A stretch of 7,904 nucleotides of DNA from a virus (Duplodnaviria; Heunggongvirae; Uroviricota; Caudoviricetes). The stretch lies in the IMG/VR virus record IMGVR_UViG_2660238352_000010, positions 1 through 7,904 of that record; one strand, given 5' to 3'. The notes beneath the pieces are model-generated. The model saw only the letters and a list, made by a program, of their open reading frames with translations, was not told where the DNA came from and made no database searches. The translations under genes and the position numbers were made by a program. Shown here one piece after another: positions 1-7,904 of this stretch (position 1 is its first letter; the number at the start of each line of letters is the position of its first letter).

Positions 1-89
1 TAGCTGGATTGAATACCCTTCAAAAGAGGTCCGCGACGCTGCTAATCAAAAGATGATGTCGGACCCACGGATGAAAGAGCTACTGGCCG

Positions 90-455
90 GTGTCGCAGTG
101 GGCGTCAGGCGCGGCAGCAAACAGTATGCTGGCATCATTCTTCCTTCAGACGGATGCATCAAATCTGAATCTTATGCACCACAAGGGCACGTCGAATGCA
201 CAACTTGGTACATTTGGTGCGTTTGACCATAACTGGCATACGGTTGTTTTCCGCTTTGCGGGAAATAACAGCGAAAGAGTCGTTCCGGTGATTGATGGTA
301 CAGAGCAGACGGCGTTTGACCTTGTGATGTGGACAAATGATGGCTTTACAGCAGATACGCTGACGCTGACAGATATCACGGGGGCAAAAGCGACGTATCC
401 TGTACTGCTTGATACGGTCACAGTCAAAGTTAACGAAAGCCGGGCATCATCATAA
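90..455 (+). CDS. Hypothetical protein, probably the 3' portion of a larger or frameshifted gene; function not recognised
   Basis: Frame 3 is open from 75 to the TAA at 453-455 and reads as a protein-like, beta-rich sequence (…FDHNWHTVVFRFAGNNSERVVPVIDGTEQTAFDLVMW…). The start is uncertain: GTG at 90 or ATG at 126, neither with a good SD. Frame 2 is open from the window edge to 238 and is also protein-like, so a frameshifted or left-truncated gene is possible. Confidence 0.35.
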   Translation: MSQWASGAAANSMLASFFLQTDASNLNLMHHKGTSNAQLGTFGAFDHNWHTVVFRFAGNNSERVVPVIDGTEQTAFDLVMWTNDGFTADTLTLTDITGAKATYPVLLDTVTVKVNESRASS

Positions 456-460
456 CCGGC

Positions 461-497
461 AAAAAAAGCCGCCAGCGGCAGGAACGGAAGCTGGCGG
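461..497 (-). terminator. Rho-independent terminator, minus-strand orientation
   Basis: An 8 bp GC-rich stem (ccgccagc 469-476 pairing with gctggcgg 490-497) with a 13 nt loop. On the + strand it is preceded by A7 (461-467), so on the minus strand the hairpin is followed by CUUUUUUU. There is no U-tract on the + side. Confidence 0.5.
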
Positions 498-547
498 AGG
501 TAATCCCAATGGAGAATGTAAAGAAAAGATGCTTTCGTATATCGGTT

Positions 548-576
548 TTTTAAATGAAAACAGTTCTCATTGTCAA
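548..576 (-). promoter_or_regulatory. Candidate sigma70 promoter on the minus strand
   Basis: Minus strand reads TTGACA (perfect -35, + coordinates 576-571), then a 17-18 nt spacer, then TTAAAA/TAAAAA (weak -10). It sits about 80 nt upstream of the minus-strand terminator at 461-497. Confidence 0.25.
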
Positions 577-594
577 CCATAACGGTAAGAAACT

Positions 595-789
595 ATGACA
601 TTTATTCATCAGGTGATGCTGTACTTCTGTACGGCGGTCTGTGTGCTGTATCTTCTTTCGGGTGGGTACAGGGCAGTGCGCGATTTCTGGCGCAGGCAGA
701 TTGATAAAAGGGCCGCAGAGAAAATCAGCGCCAGTCAGTCAGCCGGAGCAAAAACAGAAGCCCCACTCATTCCGGAACAACCTTCTTAA
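595..789 (+). CDS. Hypothetical small membrane protein (64 aa)
   Basis: ATG at 595 to TAA at 787-789. The N-terminus is hydrophobic (VMLYFCTAVCVLYLLSGGY), consistent with one TM helix, followed by a basic, charged tail. The SD is weak (aagaaa). No homolog recognised. Confidence 0.3.
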   Translation: MTFIHQVMLYFCTAVCVLYLLSGGYRAVRDFWRRQIDKRAAEKISASQSAGAKTEAPLIPEQPS

Positions 790-814
790 TAACCCCTTTC
801 AACGAGAAAATCCT

Positions 815-1105
815 ATGTCAGAAATAAAATCGCTGGTCACTGCTGAGGCAGTGAAGGAAGTCCTGCGCTCTGAAGAAGTCCGGAGCGCACTGAAACAGCA
901 ACTTCGGCAGAACCTTGAGGCGCGTCTTGATGCAGAAGTGGATTCAATTCTGGATGAATTGCTTGGTGCACAGCCGGAACCATCCCCGGAACTGCTTCCG
1001 GAACCACAGGCGGAAGATGTCACCACGGAAAATGGTGATATTCAGCCGGAGCCACCGGTGACGGATATGACAGACACACAGCCAGAATCGGGCACAATGC
1101 TGTAA
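815..1105 (+). CDS. Hypothetical acidic protein (96 aa) with a helical N-terminus and a Pro/Glu-rich, probably disordered C-terminus
   Basis: ATG at 815 is the first ATG after the in-frame TAA TAA at 787-792; the ORF-track start at 641 is an overlap artefact. The sequence is MSEIKSLVTAEAVKEVLRSEEVRSALKQQLRQNLEARLDAEVDSILDELLG…PEPSPELLPEPQAED… It ends at TAA 1103-1105, directly followed by a terminator hairpin. No homolog recognised. Confidence 0.45.
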   Translation: MSEIKSLVTAEAVKEVLRSEEVRSALKQQLRQNLEARLDAEVDSILDELLGAQPEPSPELLPEPQAEDVTTENGDIQPEPPVTDMTDTQPESGTML

Positions 1106-1115
1106 CGGTGAGTCA

Positions 1116-1153
1116 GGGTCATCAGTAAAGAGCTGGTGGCCCTTTTGTTGTTG
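1116..1153 (+). terminator. Rho-independent terminator, + strand
   Basis: A 10 bp stem (gggtcatcag 1116-1125 pairing with ctggtggccc 1133-1142, including two G-U pairs) with a 7 nt loop, followed by TTTTGTTGTTG (1143-1153). It lies between the 815..1105 ORF and the holin SD (GGGAGA at 1169-1174). Confidence 0.5.
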
Positions 1154-1180
1154 TGAGCTTCCGAGTACGGGAGACGGGGT

Positions 1181-1396
1181 ATGTACCAGATGGAAAAAAT
1201 CACAACAGGTGTGTCATACACCACGTCAGCGGTGGGAACGGGCTACTGGTTCCTGCAGTTGCTGGACAGGGTTTCCCCGTCTCAGTGGGCGGCAATAGGC
1301 GTGCTGGGGAGTCTGTTGTTTGGGCTGCTGACATATCTGACTAACCTGTATTTCAAAATCAGAGAGGACCGTCGTAAGGCGGCGCGGGGAGAGTAA
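1181..1396 (+). CDS. S: Class II holin of the phage 21 S / EssQ pinholin family (71 aa)
   Basis: The product [71 protein letters not shown] is near-identical over the C-terminal two-thirds to the P21 S21 / E. coli EssQ holin as I recall it (…[14 protein letters not shown]…[22 protein letters not shown]). It has a dual-start motif (Met1 and Met4), an SD GGGAGA 6 nt upstream, and two predicted TM helices. Confidence 0.9.
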
Positions 1397-1400
1397 AGCG

Positions 1401-1745
1401 ATGAAGAAAAAATACGAACTGGTTGTTAAAGGGATAAATAATTACCCGAATAAGATTACTGTTACTGTGGCACTGGAAATTGGTGGGTATCCGTCACTGT
1501 TGTTGCCAGATGTGGCGATTAGTCTTGACCGTACTGAAGATGCCACGCTGGAGTTTTACGAAGCTGAGGCGAAAAAGCAGGCGAAGCAGTTTTTCATGGA
1601 TGTTGCTGCCGGGTTATGTGAAGGGGATGGTCCGTTGCCGGAAAAGCGCCCCGTAATTTTAGAGGCGCAGGATGTGTTGATAACCTACAGAGGAAAACTA
1701 CCGGGAATAATTACTGGTTCTCTGAAGACTCCACCGCTGGCCTGA
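1401..1745 (+). CDS. YdfR-like DUF1327 family protein (114 aa), the usual gene between holin and endolysin in Qin-type lysis cassettes
   Basis: ATG at 1401 with SD GGGGAGAG (1386-1393), translationally coupled to the holin stop at 1394-1396. The N-terminus MKKKYELVVKGINNYP resembles the YdfR family as I recall it. Its position between S and R matches the essQ-ydfR-rrrQ arrangement. Confidence 0.7.
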   Translation: MKKKYELVVKGINNYPNKITVTVALEIGGYPSLLLPDVAISLDRTEDATLEFYEAEAKKQAKQFFMDVAAGLCEGDGPLPEKRPVILEAQDVLITYRGKLPGIITGSLKTPPLA

Positions 1746-1795
1746 AGACTTAACATATCCAGGGATTTGAAATCGATAAACCCTGATAAATATCC

Positions 1796-2833
1796 ATGAA
1801 CACCAAAATCAAATACGGCCTGTCGGCTGCCGTTCTGGCGCTGATTGCCGCAGGTGCGCCTGCGCCTGAAATCCTCGACCAGTTTCTGGATGAAAAGGAA
1901 GGTAACCACACCACGGCATACCGTGATGGCGCGGGTATCTGGACCATCTGCCGCGGTGCCATCCTGGTGGATAGTAAACCTGTCGTTCCGGGCATGAAGT
2001 TGTCGAAGGAAAAATGCGACCAGGTTAACGCCATTGAGCGTGATAAAGCGCTGGCGTGGGTGGAGAAAAACATCAGAGTGCCGCTGACCGAACCCCAGAA
2101 AGCGGGGATCGCGTCATTCTGTCCGTACAACATTGGTCCCGGTAAGTGTTTCCCGTCGACGTTTTACAGACGAATTAATGCTGGTGATCGCAGGGGAGCA
2201 TGCGAGGCGATTCGCTGGTGGATTAAGGACGGTGAGCGGTATTTTTTCTGTAATGAGCTGAATGAAAAAGGGGAGCCGGTCACCTGGCAGGGGCGGCAAT
2301 ATCAGGCGTACCCGATTGAGGGGAGTGGCTTTGAGATGAACGGAAAGGGCAGCAGTGCCCGCCCGTCGCTGACGGTGTCCAATCTTTTCGGCCTTGTCAC
2401 CGGAATGGCGGAGGATTTGCAGAGCCTGGTGGGGGCCACGGTGGTCCGCCGCCGGGTGTATGCCCGTTTTCTGGATGCGGTGAATTTCGTTGCGGGCAAT
2501 CCGGAAGCGGACCCGGAGCAGGAGCTGAGTGACCGCTGGGTGGTGGAGCAGATGTCGCAGCTGACAGCCATGACGGCCTCGTTTGTGCTGGCCACACCGA
2601 CCGAGACGGACGGGGCGCTGTTTCCCGGTCGTATCATGCTGGCGAACACCTGTATGTGGACCTACCGCTCTGATGAGTGTGGTTACACGGGCGGGGCTGT
2701 GGCGGATGAGTTCGATAAACCCACCACGGATATCCGTAAGGACAGATGCAGCAAGTGCATGCGCGGGTGTGAACTGCGCAGGAATGTCGGCAATTTTGGC
2801 GGTTTCCTTTCCATTAATAAACTTTCGCAGTAA
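1796..2833 (+). CDS. Chimeric ORF: SAR endolysin (T4-lysozyme-like, GH24) residues 1-146 fused in frame to the C-terminal 199 residues of minor tail protein L
   Basis: Residues 1-146 (MNTKIKYGLSAAVLALIAAGAPAPEILDQFLDEKEGNHTTAYRDGAGIWT…GACEAIRWWIKDG) match RrrQ/R21-type endolysins, with a Gly/Ala-rich SAR domain and an E35-x8-D44-x5-T50 catalytic triad. Residues 147-345 (ERYFFCNELNEKGEPVTWQGRQYQAYPIEGSGFEMNGKG…CSKCMRGCELRRNVGNFGGFLSINKLSQ) match lambda gpL from about residue 34 to its C-terminus, including the C-terminal Cys cluster. The junction is at about 2231-2236. Confidence 0.85.
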   Translation: MNTKIKYGLSAAVLALIAAGAPAPEILDQFLDEKEGNHTTAYRDGAGIWTICRGAILVDSKPVVPGMKLSKEKCDQVNAIERDKALAWVEKNIRVPLTEPQKAGIASFCPYNIGPGKCFPSTFYRRINAGDRRGACEAIRWWIKDGERYFFCNELNEKGEPVTWQGRQYQAYPIEGSGFEMNGKGSSARPSLTVSNLFGLVTGMAEDLQSLVGATVVRRRVYARFLDAVNFVAGNPEADPEQELSDRWVVEQMSQLTAMTASFVLATPTETDGALFPGRIMLANTCMWTYRSDECGYTGGAVADEFDKPTTDIRKDRCSKCMRGCELRRNVGNFGGFLSINKLSQ

Positions 2834-2838
2834 ATCCC

Positions 2839-3582
2839 ATGACAGAGACAGAATCAGCGATTCTGGCGCATGCCCGGCGGTGTGCGCCTGCGGAGTCGTG
2901 CGGCTTCGTGATAAGCACGCCGGAGGGGGAGCGGTATATCCCTTGTGTGAATATTTCCGCAGAGCCGGAGGCGTATTTTCGTATCGCACCGGAAGACTGG
3001 CTGCGGGCAGAGATGCAGGGGGAGATTGTGGCACTGGTCCACAGTCATCCCGGTGGACTGCCCTGGCTGAGCGAGGCCGACCGGCGGCTGCAGATAAAAA
3101 GCGCACTGCCCTGGTGGCTGGTCAGCCGGGGTGACATTCACAAATTCCGCTGCGTTCCGCACCTGACGGGACGGCGCTTTGCGCACGGGGTGACGGACTG
3201 TTACACGCTGTTCCGGGATGCATACCATCTGGCAGGCATTGATATGCCGGATTTTCATCGCGGGGATGACTGGTGGTGCAACGGTCAGAACCTTTACCTG
3301 GACAATATGGAGGCAACGGGCTTTTACCGGGTGCCCCTGTCCTCTGCACTGCCGGGCGATATCCTGCTGTGCTGCTTCGGCGCATCGGTGGCTAATCATG
3401 CCGCCATTTACTGCGGCAACGGTGAGCTGCTTCACCATCTGCCTGAACAGCTGAGTAAACGGGAGAGGTATTCCGAAAAATGGCAACGACGAACGCATTC
3501 TGTCTGGCGTCACCGCCACTGGCACGCATCTGCCTTCACGGGGATTTACAACGATTTGGCCGCCGCCTCAGCCTGTATGTGA
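2839..3582 (+). CDS. K: Tail tip assembly protein K (MPN/JAMM plus NlpC/P60 domains), 247 aa
   Basis: The product is close to lambda gpK (MTETESAILAHARRCAPAESCGFV…). It has a complete JAMM motif H68-x-H70-x7-S78-x2-D81 (VHSHPGGLPWLSEAD) and an NlpC/P60-type Cys121 (VTDCYTLF) with downstream His residues. The start is 5 nt after the L stop. It overlaps I by 103 bp. Confidence 0.9.
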   Translation: MTETESAILAHARRCAPAESCGFVISTPEGERYIPCVNISAEPEAYFRIAPEDWLRAEMQGEIVALVHSHPGGLPWLSEADRRLQIKSALPWWLVSRGDIHKFRCVPHLTGRRFAHGVTDCYTLFRDAYHLAGIDMPDFHRGDDWWCNGQNLYLDNMEATGFYRVPLSSALPGDILLCCFGASVANHAAIYCGNGELLHHLPEQLSKRERYSEKWQRRTHSVWRHRHWHASAFTGIYNDLAAASACM

Positions 3583-4160
3583 ACACGGCAGCGGAAGCCA
3601 TCCGCGCACTGTCGATGCAGGTGCCGGGCTTTCGCCGTCAGATGAACGAAGGCTGGTACCAGATACGCATTGCCGGTGAGGATACGGCACCGGAGGCGGT
3701 GTATGCCCGCCTTCACGAACCACTGAGTGAGGGAACGGTTATCCATATTGTGCCGCGACTGGCCGGGGCCGGAAAGGGTGGACTGCAGATTGTGCTGGGG
3801 GCGGCAGCCATCGTGGGCTCTTTCCTCACGGCCGGTGCCTCGATGGCGTTATGGGGTACAGCCCTGAGTGCCGGCGGTTTTTCTGCCACCACGATGCTGT
3901 TTTCACTGGGGGCCAGCATGATTCTGGGTGGTGTGGCCCAGATGCTGGCCCCGAAGGCAAAAACACCGGATTACCGCGCAACGGATAACGGCAGACAGAA
4001 CACGTATTTTTCGTCACTGGACAACATGATTGCCCAGGGTAACCCGATGCCGGTGCCTTACGGGGAAATGCTGGTTGGCTCCCGCCGTATATCCCAGGAC
4101 ATCAGTACCCGTGATGAAGGCGGGTGCGGAAAGGTCGTGGTTATCGGGCGGCAGGGGTAA
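3480..4160 (+). CDS. I: Tail tip assembly protein I (ubiquitin-like N-terminal domain, hydrophobic Gly/Ala-rich C-terminal half)
   Basis: The product MATTNAFCLASPPLARICLHGDLQRFGRRL…MLAPKAKTPDYRATDNGRQNTYFSSLDNMIAQGN…VVVIGR aligns along its length with lambda gpI as I recall it. A GG sits at residues 100-101 after the Ubl region. The stop is TAA at 4158-4160. Confidence 0.9.
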   Translation: MATTNAFCLASPPLARICLHGDLQRFGRRLSLYVNTAAEAIRALSMQVPGFRRQMNEGWYQIRIAGEDTAPEAVYARLHEPLSEGTVIHIVPRLAGAGKGGLQIVLGAAAIVGSFLTAGASMALWGTALSAGGFSATTMLFSLGASMILGGVAQMLAPKAKTPDYRATDNGRQNTYFSSLDNMIAQGNPMPVPYGEMLVGSRRISQDISTRDEGGCGKVVVIGRQG

Positions 4161-4167
4161 AAAGAAT

Positions 4168-4201
4168 AAAAAAAATCCCGCAGTGATCGCGGAGCTGCGG
4201 G
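4168..4201 (-). terminator. Rho-independent terminator, minus-strand orientation
   Basis: A 7 bp stem (cccgcag 4177-4183 pairing with ctgcggg 4195-4201) with an 11 nt loop. On the + strand it is preceded by A8 (4168-4175), so the minus-strand RNA ends …CUGCGGGAUUUUUUUU. There is no U-tract on the + side. Confidence 0.6.
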
Positions 4202-4262
4202 GACAGACAAAGATTAGAGTTAAGGAGTTGTTTTTGTTACTCGGGCAAAAAAACACTAACGC
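4168..4262 (-). ncRNA. Candidate prophage-encoded small RNA (~95 nt), minus strand, between tail genes I and J
   Basis: The unit is bounded by a near-consensus sigma70 promoter (TTCACA, 16 bp spacer, TATAAT) with a predicted TSS near 4262, and by the intrinsic terminator at 4168-4201. No plausible ORF is contained. The predicted RNA is 5'-GCUGCGUUAGUGUUUUUUUGCCCGAGUAACAAAAACAACUCCUUAACUCUAAUCUUUGUCUGUCCCCGCAGCUCCGCGAUCACUGCGGGAUUUUUUUU-3', with a CA-rich tract and an anti-SD-like CUCCUU. Confidence 0.45.
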
Positions 4263-4268
4263 AGCGAA

Positions 4269-4296
4269 ATTATACGCGCCACAGTCAGTTTGTGAA
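4269..4296 (-). promoter_or_regulatory. Sigma70 promoter on the minus strand (-35 TTCACA, 16 bp spacer, -10 TATAAT), with an A/T-rich upstream region
   Basis: On the + strand, ATTATA at 4269-4274 is the reverse complement of a perfect TATAAT, and TGTGAA at 4291-4296 is the reverse complement of TTCACA (5/6 to TTGACA). The minus-strand sequence upstream of the -35 (…ggcataaaaattctgaatatc) is A/T-rich and UP-element-like. Confidence 0.55.
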
Positions 4297-4368
4297 AATG
4301 TGAAGATATTCAGAATTTTTATGCCATTACCGGTTTTTACCAACAGGATTATCGGTGGACATGAAAGA

Positions 4369-4404
4369 AAACCCCGGTATCTGCTGATACCGGGGTTTCT
4401 CTTT
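4369..4404. terminator. Bidirectional intrinsic terminator: perfect 13 bp stem, 4 nt loop, U-rich tracts on both strands
   Basis: aaaccccggtatc (4369-4381), loop tgct, gataccggggttt (4386-4398). The + strand is followed by TTCTCTTT; the minus strand is followed by UCUUUCAU after the stem. It lies about 100 nt upstream of the J start and about 70 nt upstream (minus sense) of the minus-strand promoter. Confidence 0.6.
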
Positions 4405-4501
4405 AGCATGGCAGAAATGTGTTTCATGCTTTTCGGGCGAAGGATATCCGACTTCTGTACGGAATGGCAAGTGGCGGTTAATTTATTCAGGGGAAGGCTG
4501 T

Positions 4502-7500
4502 ATGGGAAAAGGTGGCGGTAAGGCACACACGCCTCGTGAGGCGAAGGATAATCTCAAATCCACGCAGATGATGAGCGTGATTGATGCGGTTGGTGAGGGA
4601 CCGATAGAAGGCCCGGTGAAGGGACTGCAGAGTATCCTGGTGAACAAAACCCCGCTGACGGACACGGACGGTAATCCCGTGATACACGGTGTGACGGCGG
4701 TCTGGCGCGCCGGGGAGCAGGAGCAGACACCACCGGAAGGCTTTGAGTCCTCCGGAGCTGAAACTGTACTGGGCGTGGAAGTGACGAAGGCAAAACCGGT
4801 GACGCGCACCATTACGTCCGCGAACATTGACCGCCTGCGGGTTACCTTCGGGGTGCAGTCACTGGTGCAGACCACGTCAAAGGGTGACCGAAACCCGACA
4901 TCCGTCCGCCTGCTGATTCAGTTACAGCGTAACGGTAACTGGGTGACAGAAAAGGATGTCACCATTAACGGCAAGACCACCTCGCAGTTTCTGGCGTCGG
5001 TGATTCTGGATAATCTGCCTCCCCGTCCTTTTAACATCCGGATGGTCCGGGAGACGGCGGACAGCACCACGGACCAGTTGCAGAACAGAACACTCTGGTC
5101 ATCGTACACCGAAATCATCGATGTGAAACAGTGCTACCCGAACACGGCGATTGTGGGGCTGCAGGTGGATGCGGAGCAGTTCGGTGGTCAGCAGATGACG
5201 GTGAACTACCATATCCGCGGTCGCATCATCCAGGTGCCGTCAAACTATGACCCGGAAAAACGCACCTACAGCGGTATCTGGGACGGCAGTCTGAAACCGG
5301 CATACAGCAACAACCCGGCCTGGTGCCTGTGGGACATGCTGACTCACCCGCGCTACGGGATGGGAAAACGTCTGGGGGCGGCGGATGTGGACAAGTGGGC
5401 GCTGTATGCCATCGGGCAGTACTGCGACCAGACGGTCCCGGATGGTTTCGGGGGCACAGAGCCGCGGATGACCTTTAATGCGTACCTGGCACAACAGCGT
5501 AAGGCGTGGGACGTTCTCAGTGATTTCTGCTCGGCGATGCGCTGTATGCCGGTATGGAACGGCCAGACGCTGACGTTCGTTCAGGACCGCCAGTCGGATG
5601 TGGTGTGGCCGTACACGAACAGCGATGTGGTGGTGGATGATAACGGCGTGGGGTTCCGCTACAGCTTCAGTGCCCTGAAGGACCGGCACACGGCGGTGGA
5701 GGTGAATTACACCGACCCGCAGAACGGCTGGCAGACCTCCACGGAACTGGTGGAAGACCCGGAAGCCATACTGCGCTACGGACGCAACCTGCTGAAGATG
5801 GATGCGTTCGGCTGCACCAGTCGCGGTCAGGCCCACCGTGCCGGGCTGTGGGTGATAAAGACAGAACTGCTGGAAACGCAGACGGTGGATTTCACACTCG
5901 GGTCACAGGGGCTGCGGCACACACCCGGTGACATCATTGAAATCTGTGATAACGACTATGCCGGAACCCTGACCGGCGGACGTGTCCTGTCCATTGATGC
6001 TGCCACCCGCACCCTGACGCTGGACCGTGAAGTGACACTTCCGGGGACAGGTACATCGACGGTGAACCTGATTAACGGCAGCGGTAAGCCGGTGAGTGTG
6101 GACATCACCGCACACCCCGCGCCGGACCGGATACAGGTCAGTACCCTGCCTGATGGTGTGGAGACATACGGGGTGTGGGGACTCTCCCTGCCGTCACTGC
6201 GCCGTCGCCTGTTCCGCTGTGTCTCCATCCGGGAAAACACGGACGGCACCTTTGCCATCACGGCAGTGCAGCACGTACCGGAAAAAGAAGCCATTGTGGA
6301 TAACGGAGCCCGCTTTGAGCCGCAGTCAGGCACCCTGAACAGCGTTATCCCACCGGCAGTGCAGCACCTGACGGTGGAGGTGAGCGCAGCTGACGGCCAG
6401 TATCTGGCGCTGGCGAAATGGGACACGCCGCGGGTGGTGAAGGGCGTGCGCTTCAGTCTGCGCCTGACCAGTGGAAGCGGTGAGAACAGCCGCCTGCTGA
6501 CCACCGCCATCACTGCCGATACGGAGCACCGTTTCAGTGGCCTGCCTCTCGGGGAATACACCCTGACGGTCAGGGCGATTAACAGCTATGGCCAGCAGGG
6601 CGAACCCGCCACCACCACGTTCCGGATTAACGCACCGGCAGCGCCTGCCGGTGTTGAACTGACGCCGGGGTATTTTCAGATAACGGCGGTACCGCGTCTT
6701 GCGGTGTATGACCCGACGGTGCAGTTTGAGTTCTGGTTTTCGGAGGCAAAAATTGCAGACGCCGCACAGGTGGAAACCTCTGCCCGTTATCTGGGGACCG
6801 GCAGTCAGTGGAGTGTCTCCGGCCCGCACATTAAGCCCGGAAAGGATTTCTGGTTTTATGTGCGCAGCGTCAACCTGGTGGGTAAATCTGCTTTTGTGGA
6901 AGCCAGTGGACGGGCGAGCAATGATGCTGCGGGCTATCTGGAACTTTTCCGGGAAAAGATAGGAAAAACGCATCTGGCAGAGGCGCTGTGGGCAGAGATT
7001 GACAACAGTCAGCTGAAGGACGAGATGGCGGAAATGCAGACCACCATCACAGAAACCCGCAATGAAATCACACAGACGGTCAGTAAAACGCTGGAGGACC
7101 AGAGCGCCACCATACAGCAGATACAGCGCGTGCAGAAGGACACAAATGATGACCTTGCTGCACTTTACATGCTGAAGGTACAGAAAACAAAAAATGGCAT
7201 ACCCTATGTTGCCGGTATTGGAGCGGGGATTGAGGATACTGATGGCCAGCCCCTGAGCAACATACTGCTGCTGGCTGACCGTATTGCGATGATTAATCCG
7301 GAGGACGGCAACACCACGCCGTTATTTGTGGCGCAGGGGAATCAGTTGTTCATGAACGATGTGTTCCTGAAGCGGCTGTTTGCGGTGAGTATCACCTCGT
7401 CCGGCAATCCCCCGACGTTTTCCCTGACGCCGGAGGGCAGGCTGACCGCAAGAAATGCTGATATCAGCGGTAACGTGAATGCGAATTCCGGGACGCTCAA

Positions 7501-7904
7501 CAACGTCACGATTAACGAGAACTGTCGGGTTCTGGGAAAACTGTCCGCGAACCAGATTGAAGGCGATCTCGTTAAAACAGTGGGCAAAGCTTTCCCCCGG
7601 GACTCCCGTGCACCGGAGCGGTGGCCATCAGGGACCATTACCGTCAGGGTTTATGACGATCAGCCGTTTGACCGGCAGATTGTTATTCCGGCGGTGGCAT
7701 TCAGTGGCGCTAAGCATAAGAGAGAGCATACTGATATTTACTCCTCATGCCGTCTGATAGTGCGGAAAAACGGTGCTGAAATTTATAACCGTACCGCGCT
7801 GGATAATACGCTGATTTACAGTGGCGTTATTGATATGCCTGCCGGTCACGGTCACATGACACTGGAGTTTTCGGTGTCAGCATGGCTGGTAAATAACTGG
7901 TATC
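4502..7904 (+). CDS. J: Host specificity / central tail fibre protein J, 3' end truncated by the window edge
   Basis: ATG at 4502 with SD GGGGAAGG upstream. The frame is open to the window end (1134 codons). The N-terminus [39 protein letters not shown]… and long stretches (…[31 protein letters not shown]…, …[34 protein letters not shown]…, …[11 protein letters not shown]…) match lambda gpJ as I recall it. It is absent from the ORF track only because no stop lies inside the window. Confidence 0.95.

Follow-up and report, generated by a model that had tools for sequence, protein, structure and literature searches.

A predicted, probably Esr41-related small RNA gene in the late region of a Shiga toxin phage-like prophage

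We analysed a stretch of 7,904 nucleotides from a tailed phage (IMG/VR record IMGVR_UViG_2660238352_000010, positions 1 to 7,904; hereafter the window), which the Pfam assignments of its plus strand genes identify as the late region of a lambdoid prophage resembling the Shiga toxin (Stx) phages. The minus strand of positions 576-461 is very probably a real, unannotated small RNA (sRNA) gene, predicted from its sequence to give a regulatory RNA of about 80 nt, and very probably a diverged relative (a sister) of the gene for the Hfq-binding E. coli sRNA Esr41 (EcOnc14). The unit sits antisense to the late operon in the 139-bp gap between the stop codon of an esterase gene and the start codon of a DUF1378 gene. 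This slot, with its sRNAs PasA, PasC and EcOnc33, was already known, as was Esr41; what is new is the presence there of an unannotated, diverged Esr41 sister. None of the matching E. coli genomes and phage records carries an RNA annotation at the site.

Promoter, terminator and conservation of the predicted unit

The original prediction, that a small transcription unit on the minus strand runs antisense to the late genes, is supported by its position in the slot of PasA, PasC and EcOnc33 and by a reciprocal similarity to Esr41, both described below. The perfect TTGACA -35 element (576-571) and the weak -10 element (TTAAAA or TAAAAA) on which it was based are both present (Table 1). The poor -10 had been counted as a weakness, a concern that is eased by the promoter of EcOnc33 in prophage Sp6 of Sakai (TTGACA-17-TTAAAA), in which the hexamers and their spacing are identical to those of the window unit, and by the -10 elements of PasA and PasC, which are as poor. 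Esr41 has TTATAT at equal spacing, and TTGAC is invariant in all of the diverged copies as well as in Esr41, PasA and PasC. The promoter spacer contains an imperfect dyad, of which only the core AAC-N-GTT is kept in relatives, and is overlapped by a 13/19 match to the Fur-box consensus (574-556, minus strand). That the dyad is a Fur-box-like regulatory site is a low-confidence suggestion, as in AT-rich DNA such a match may be chance. The two best 19-bp matches to the Fur box in the window are tied at 13/19; the other one (4305-4323, plus strand) is just upstream of the promoter of PasB, a further sRNA discussed below.

In Esr41, PasA and PasC alike, the distance between the mapped 5' end and the initial T of TTGACA is exactly 35 nt, and the same offset therefore places the predicted transcription start of the window unit at 541 ± 1 and gives an RNA of about 81 nt. 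An A/U-rich stretch follows the -10, and the terminator hairpin begins ~45 nt 3' of the predicted start. The GC-rich hairpin and U-run that had been described at 497-461 are found there, with stem arms (CCGCCAGC at 497-490 and GCUGGCGG at 476-469) that are complementary at 8/8 positions (7 G-C pairs) and are followed by C + U7. A GC-rich stem-loop with a U-run on the transcribed strand is what defines an intrinsic (Rho-independent) terminator, and a 3' GC-rich palindrome with a long poly-U is also the Hfq-binding module of the Esr41 type. The U-run is present on the minus strand only (the plus strand reads AGGTAATCCC after the stem), and the hairpin is therefore able to terminate only minus-strand transcripts. 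Folding of the minus strand from 540 to 461, which the original prediction had proposed as a check, gave a centroid structure consisting of the terminator hairpin alone and a minimum free energy (MFE) of -18.1 kcal/mol. The motif UUCUCCAU (516-509), which we take up below as the putative seed, is unpaired in the centroid. The 5' motif CGAAAG, which is invariant in all of the phage-borne copies and missing from Esr41, pairs with the 3' GCUUUU in the MFE fold.

Taken singly, the promoter, the hairpin and the fold do not exceed chance; it is conservation and homology that lift the site above it. A 146-nt core of the unit has matches in 976 of 5426 complete E. coli genomes (~18%), at 74-100% identity and with a median of 2 and a maximum of 7 copies per carrier genome, and a 451-nt query matched 304 phage records, mainly Stx1- and Stx2-converting phages. 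Copies are present in the Sakai prophages Sp5 (the Stx2 phage) and Sp15 (the Stx1 phage); on NC_002695.2 the two occupy 1272086-1272219 and 2922031-2922167, respectively. The Sp5 copy, which is 82% identical to the window, lies between a nanS-p remnant and a DUF1378 homologue. The type that is 74% identical is carried by the genomes of O104:H4 HUSEC2011 and O121:H19. Little or no variation is seen across the diverged copies in TTGAC, the spacing, GTTTTC, CGAAAG, UUCUCCAU, the stem and the U-run; UUCUCCAU is common to the window type, the Sp5/Sp15 type, the O104:H4 type and Esr41, with an insertion in one variant. The terminator stem is 98.6% paired over 18 distinct homologues, among which the only changes are one A-U to G-U replacement and one double change; being nearly invariant, the stem offers covariation that says little either way.

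The flanks of the unit behave differently from the unit itself. When the Sp5 and O104-type loci are compared, the DUF1378 gene is 100% and the esterase end 90% identical, whereas the sRNA gene is 76% identical, which means that the RNA body changes, by divergence or by exchange, more rapidly than the DNA on either side. The promoter, the core seed and the terminator are kept while the body varies, and the DNA just 3' of the U-run alternates among several unrelated esterase ends. We also scanned with the pattern TTCTCCAT-N(8-16)-CCGCCRGC, which is too loose for large collections: in genome contigs it gave only chance matches, in unrelated phyla, and in viral contigs it gave 22 true homologous loci after BLAST filtering. 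One copy, from E. coli O18 (NZ_CP007275.1), has its 13-nt terminator loop in the opposite orientation to that of the other members (GGCAGGAAUGGAC, the reverse complement of GUCCAUUCCUGCC), probably because the segment between the palindromic stem arms was flipped. The covariance model described below matches this hairpin on either strand.

Kinship with Esr41 and with other sRNAs of the slot

At the Rfam gathering thresholds no match was found anywhere in the window. When positions 380-700 (321 nt) were scanned by E-value, the best match was Esr41 (RF02676), which aligned over the full model to 461-535 of the minus strand with 20.5 bits (E = 0.1). The Sakai Sp5 copy scored 28.1 bits (E = 0.0015) and is intermediate between the window unit and Esr41, while the genuine Esr41 of Sakai SpLE1 scored 108.6 bits; the genuine Esr41 copies in E. 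coli genomes are all ≥ 95% identical to each other. In the reverse direction, we built a covariance model (R1) from 11 phage-borne copies, with Esr41 excluded. R1, which aligns to 461-540 of the window, recovered Esr41 to within 3 nt of its annotated ends and ranked it as the best match outside the family (22.8 bits; E = 0.003 in 719 kb and E = 0.00036 in 85 kb). The 719-kb background was mostly DNA selected for the motif TTCTCCAT...CCGCCRGC, i.e. chance pattern matches, and was therefore a hard background for this search. The similarity is thus reciprocal, and it is significant with Esr41 left out of the model; a BLAST search with Esr41 as the query did not reach the family.

The two RNAs share most of their functional layout. 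The Esr41 promoter (TTGACAacgctaactatttttaaTTATATattcatG) aligns with that of the window unit (TTGACAatgagaactgttttcatTTAAAAaaccgatA) as TTGACAA..AACT.TTTT.A.TT, with the transcription start 35 nt from TTGACA. Common to both RNAs are the single-stranded anti-ribosome-binding-site motif UUCUCCAU, a small hairpin region with GGG/CCU and a terminator of the form CCGCC(A/G)GC...GCUGGCG that ends in a U7 tail. They are similar in length (74 nt for Esr41, ~81 nt for the window RNA) and differ in the bases adjacent to the seed (CAUUGGGAUUA in the window RNA against CAUGGGGUAUU in Esr41) and in the 5' third, which is unrelated: a GAUGC/GCAUC stem-loop in Esr41 and CGAAAGCAUCUUUUCUUUA in the window RNA. 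They also differ in setting. Members of the window family reside in Stx-phage late regions, with up to 7 copies per genome, whereas Esr41 is a single copy in SpLE1 (O-island 43/48), near iha and ter, a location that the window unit does not share. Homology to the Esr41 locus ends at the borders of the sRNA gene. Rfam Esr41 hits near pasD have been mentioned, and left undescribed, by Zhu et al. 2026 (bioRxiv 10.64898/2026.05.13.724894); these may be the locus described here.

The slot itself is known from enteropathogenic E. coli (EPEC) E2348/69, in which the coordinates of PasA and PasC have been published (Pearl Mizrahi et al. 2021, PMC8550237, table S6); the two RNAs are 79-85 nt long, and their stability was Hfq-dependent on northern blots (PMC8550237). 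Each locus is just downstream of a SASA esterase gene, antisense, and starts from TTGACA; PasA is next to the holin-lysozyme cassette, and the typical order is esterase-pasA/pasC-holin-lysozyme (Zhu, Shabalina and Storz, bioRxiv 10.64898/2026.05.13.724894). The window unit, which is intergenic between a sialate esterase and a holin cassette and antisense to both, lies in the same slot and orientation as PasA and PasC (EcOnc51/52 in Sakai), and has, as they do, a TTGACA -35 followed by a poor -10, a terminator made up of GCCAGC...GCUGGC and a U-run, and a similar size. However, the bodies and the predicted seeds of PasA and PasC have no detectable likeness to the window RNA (R1 E ≥ 6.4). In sequence only TTGACA, GCCAGC/GCTGGC and the T-run are common to all, PasA and PasC lack UUCUCCAU, and their slot in E2348/69 lacks the DUF1378 and DUF826 genes. 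Assignment of the window unit as a PasA-2 or PasC variant was also rejected, the 3' ends being different. In prophage PP2 of E2348/69 we observed a second complete unit directly downstream of PasA on the minus strand, with TTGACA, a short body and a PasC-like terminator (UUAGCCAGCG...CGCUGGCUUUUUUUAUUAUGC), which ends at the reported minor 3' end of PasA (743264); the slot is therefore able to hold tandem sRNA cassettes.

A further positional counterpart is found in Sakai Sp6, where the esterase-DUF1378 gap holds a minus-strand TTGACA, a 17-bp spacer, TTAAAA, a body, GCCGCCGG...CCGGCGGC and C + U7, at about 1557191-1557306 of NC_002695.2. We equate this unit with EcOnc33 (Tree et al. 2014), a placement that rests on a ~140-nt offset between Sakai genome versions, derived from Esr41 and AsxR. 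EcOnc33 was Hfq-crosslinked in 5/5 UV cross-linking and analysis of cDNA (CRAC) data sets, has a terminator and runs at ~71 nt on northern blots (Tree et al. 2014). It matches the window unit in the esterase-DUF1378 slot, the strand, and the GC-rich terminator with its CU7 tail, and differs in its body, which lacks UUCUCCAU and is matched only weakly by R1 (9.6 bits, E = 0.34). With the separate RNA body of EcOnc33, the number of sRNA sequence families in the slot comes to four or more.

The anti-sRNAs AsxR and AgvB are likewise short prophage sRNAs, convergent with the late operon, that bind Hfq and form related groups whose 3' parts are conserved and whose 5' parts vary. They differ from the window unit in position (upstream of the esterase gene, just after the moron or stx genes), in length (51-60 nt) and in acting as sponges for host sRNAs. 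Rfam found no AsxR or AgvB match in the window, and on these two grounds, i.e. position and the missing match, this identity was rejected.

Predicted function and alternative explanations

The explanation that we consider probable is that the unit encodes an autonomous, lysogen-expressed, Hfq-type RNA, running from 541 to 461, that acts in trans by blocking ribosome binding sites. It would be a moron-like gene whose transcription in the lysogen, by the host sigma-70 RNA polymerase, begins at 541 ± 1, stops in the U-run and does not depend on the Q-antiterminated late transcript. The hairpin and the U-tail behind it would terminate and stabilise the RNA and bind Hfq, which we infer from Esr41, the Pas sRNAs and EcOnc33. 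The single-stranded UUCUCCAU, which is anti-Shine-Dalgarno and anti-start-codon in character, would pair with ribosome binding sites resembling AUGGAGAA and so repress the translation of host, and possibly island, mRNAs, as Esr41 does at cirA, chuA and bfr. Esr41 represses these three targets in trans, as confirmed by compensatory mutations (PMC5286369), and binds at the ribosome binding site (PMC8065619, PMC9002310).

We used the Esr41-cirA interaction as a control for target prediction. It was recovered as a 13-bp duplex (UCUCCAUGGGGUA with UACCUCAUGGAGA) that overlaps the Shine-Dalgarno sequence and has UUCUCCAU at its centre; its energy was -26.4 kcal/mol, and 0/500 shuffles were as stable. 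The window RNA gave -18.4 kcal/mol with cirA, from a 7-bp core, and 2.8% of shuffles were as good. For bfr no family member, Esr41 included, paired better than shuffles, and since the prediction fails even for Esr41 such duplex energies are weak evidence. Because the bases flanking the seed differ from those of Esr41 and the cirA match is down to a 7-bp core, the targets of the window RNA are probably overlapping but not identical with those of Esr41. Within the window the seed has no second target in cis; the only site found is its own antisense.

The RNA also appears to be non-coding, as there is no AUG or GUG with a preceding Shine-Dalgarno sequence on the minus strand within 461-541. On the plus strand, 496-554 reads GGAGG, 8 nt, an ATG and then a 14-codon open reading frame (ORF; MENVKKRCFRISVF). 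This mini-ORF (510-554) is reduced to 4 codons elsewhere, MEKK in Sp5 and MEKM at the Esr41 locus, and we rejected it as a gene, which it probably is not: it is just the complement of the anti-Shine-Dalgarno seed of the sRNA.

Several points weigh against a functional trans-acting RNA. The -10 lacks the conserved final T, and for that reason the promoter scan of the window made no call at 576-547. The fold is modestly stable relative to shuffles (z-score -1.7), and covariation gives the structure no independent support. The Rfam score (20.5 bits) is far below the 102-bit gathering threshold of RF02676, the cirA pairing is marginal and the bfr pairing no better than shuffles. Expression of the 541-461 RNA is something we infer, and Tree et al. 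2014 do not list the Sakai Sp5 and Sp15 copies among their 63 Hfq-bound candidate sRNAs; reads from near-identical copies may have been lost as multi-mapping, and low expression is an equally possible cause.

The same absence also speaks for a decaying or silent copy of an Esr41/Pas-type gene, no longer usefully transcribed in a defective prophage. The weak -10 and the defect of this prophage, evident from an endolysin::tail-L fusion, point in that direction, as does the precedent of the terminator-less PasA-3, a possible pseudogene according to Zhu et al. (bioRxiv 10.64898/2026.05.13.724894). However, inducible phages that are intact and dozens of genomes contain copies that equal the window allele or nearly do (PhiR5_1 and S1-CAM-02-A are examples of carriers), none of the promoter hexamers, seed, stem and U7 tail is damaged, and the verified EcOnc33 uses the same hexamers, so that we give a silent copy only a small probability.

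An action in cis has a similarly small share in our estimate. Over 461-541 the RNA has perfect complementarity to the polycistronic mRNA of the late genes, giving the sole strong duplex in the window, its promoter lies 19 nt upstream of the start codon of DUF1378, a small protein of unknown function, and convergent sRNA genes recur in lambdoid late regions; it could therefore be a cis-antisense RNA on the late transcript, or a type I antitoxin for DUF1378 as the original prediction had suggested, tuning the lysis cassette via RNase III cleavage or transcriptional interference. The geometry argues otherwise. The predicted RNA (541-461) ends 54 nt short of the DUF1378 start codon at 595 and leaves the ribosome binding site uncovered, rather than overlapping the mRNA as the antisense RNA of a type I pair does. 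No plus strand promoter was called in 456-594, and overlap would occur only with a late transcript reading through the gap, in line with the proviso of the original prediction that the transcripts would not overlap unless the ORF mRNA started upstream. Nor are RNA and putative toxin inherited together: Esr41 (in SpLE1) and PasA (directly before a holin gene) keep the promoter and terminator, and Esr41 also the seed, with no DUF1378 gene nearby, and in the comparison of the Sp5 and O104-type loci the two genes part company. Finally, Esr41 acts in trans, and the most conserved internal element of the window RNA is a generic anti-ribosome-binding-site motif rather than a locus-specific one.

The last alternative is that the hairpin is a terminator relic or 3' stabiliser of some other transcript and that TTGACA is a plus strand regulatory site. 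The composition of the window lends this some substance, with 19 terminator-like sites against 7.2 expected from shuffles (the scan reported the present hairpin solely as a shorter, 5-bp version) and two occurrences of TTGACA against 4.45 expected, so that a single TTGACA is not significant. However, the U-run is restricted to the minus strand, an ORF check found no credible minus-strand gene upstream of the unit that the hairpin could serve, and the TTGACA, the -10 spacing and the RNA body are conserved as a unit that is homologous to a complete sRNA gene. The hexamer being conserved as a component of the minus-strand unit, we rejected a role of TTGACA as a qut-like or late-promoter element, and we regard this last alternative as a whole as very improbable.

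Surrounding genes and implications

The coordinates of the unit and of the genes around it are collected in Table 1. The gene ending at 455, which is convergent with the sRNA gene, is annotated in matching genomes as a SASA family carbohydrate esterase or a DUF6645 protein. The DUF1378 ORF (64 aa) was counted as context and not as part of the RNA unit. Further downstream an in-frame fusion joins the N-terminal part of an endolysin (PF00959, residues 33-147) to minor tail protein L (PF05100, residues 146-343) and is followed by K, I, a 370-bp gap and J; the fusion therefore implies deletion of the genes from Rz through the head and most tail genes, and a defective prophage. None of the complete E. 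coli genomes in the collection contains the whole window with the fusion junction. Between DUF826 and the holin gene, at 1115-1152 of the late-gene strand, we observed a 12-pair terminator-like hairpin followed by TTTGTTGTTG.

Table 1. Positions in the window of the predicted sRNA gene, its elements and the neighbouring genes
Feature	Position	Strand	Basis
Esterase-associated DUF6645 C-terminal domain, nanS-p type (3' end of late gene)	1..455	+	Pfam PF20350
C + U7 tail, terminator U-run; by analogy a likely Hfq proximal-face binding site	461..468	-	Read directly, conserved
Terminator hairpin (CCGCCAGC, 13-nt loop, GCUGGCGG)	469..497	-	
Core seed UUCUCCAU, complementary to AUGGAGAA (Shine-Dalgarno GGAG + AUG)	509..516	-	
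Conserved 5' motif CGAAAG	532..537	-	
Predicted sRNA, ~81 nt (+1 at 541 ± 1, 3' end in U-run)	461..541	-	
Weak -10: TTAAAA with 17-bp spacer (553-548) or TAAAAA with 18-bp spacer (552-547)	547..553	-	Read directly
Promoter spacer with imperfect dyad ATGAGAAC-T-GTTTTCAT	554..570	-	
-35 hexamer TTGACA of the sRNA promoter	571..576	-	Read directly
DUF1378 ORF, 64 aa, divergent from the sRNA promoter	595..789	+	Pfam PF07125, E = 9e-35
DUF826	815-1105	+	Pfam
P21-type holin	1181-1396	+	Pfam
DUF1327	1401-1745	+	Pfam
Endolysin::tail-protein-L in-frame fusion	1796-2833	+	Pfam

The original prediction had drawn a parallel with a second minus-strand unit, in the gap between the tail genes I and J (4174-4296), and this parallel holds: the I-J unit is PasB. 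A northern probe published for PasB is an exact match to 4174-4196, the region has 92% identity with the PasB locus of E2348/69, and PasB here has a near-consensus promoter (4296-4269) and a terminator at 4193-4177. Compared with E2348/69, the I-J gap of the window has ~130 bp more. At 4368-4470 of the minus strand, upstream of the PasB promoter, lies a strong hairpin of 14 pairs (GAAACCCCGGUAUC-AGCA-GAUACCGGGGUUUU) preceded by TTGCCA-18-TATCCT, which could be another tandem small unit; Rfam gave no significant match there.

A bolder possibility, which we put forward tentatively and think rather unlikely, is that the esterase-to-holin slot of Stx-type prophages is a site of swappable sRNA cassettes. 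The unrelated or rapidly diverging bodies of the Esr41-like types, PasA, PasC and EcOnc33 would then be exchanged between a shared promoter (TTGACA with a weak -10) and a shared terminator of GC stem and U7, each prophage copy would bring the host a different seed, and Esr41 itself would be an escaped cassette copy. The Esr41-like alleles of the classical Stx1 and Stx2 phages (the Sp5/933W, Sp15 and O104:H4 types) would link the carriage of Stx phages to iron-uptake or other genes targeted at the ribosome binding site, and the alleles might in turn be regulated by iron and Fur via the Fur-box-like spacer dyad.

Esr41 has been described as an sRNA specific to enterohaemorrhagic E. coli (EHEC), present as a single copy on an island and affecting iron uptake, colicin sensitivity, the enterocyte effacement locus (LEE) and motility. 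If the RNA described here is expressed, roughly one in five complete E. coli genomes has 1-7 copies of an unannotated Esr41-like regulator; among the carriers are the phage type of the O104:H4 outbreak and, in O157:H7, the main Stx1 and Stx2 phages. A sister family that is phage-borne, multi-copy and equipped with the same core seed would, if real, mean that the phenotypes of esr41 deletions may be buffered and that gain or loss of an Stx phage could alter the Esr41 regulon. The practical gain is modest, i.e. better annotation. With this unit the sRNA slot already known downstream of nanS-p gains a fourth sequence family, which supports the view that lambdoid late regions carry interchangeable riboregulators.

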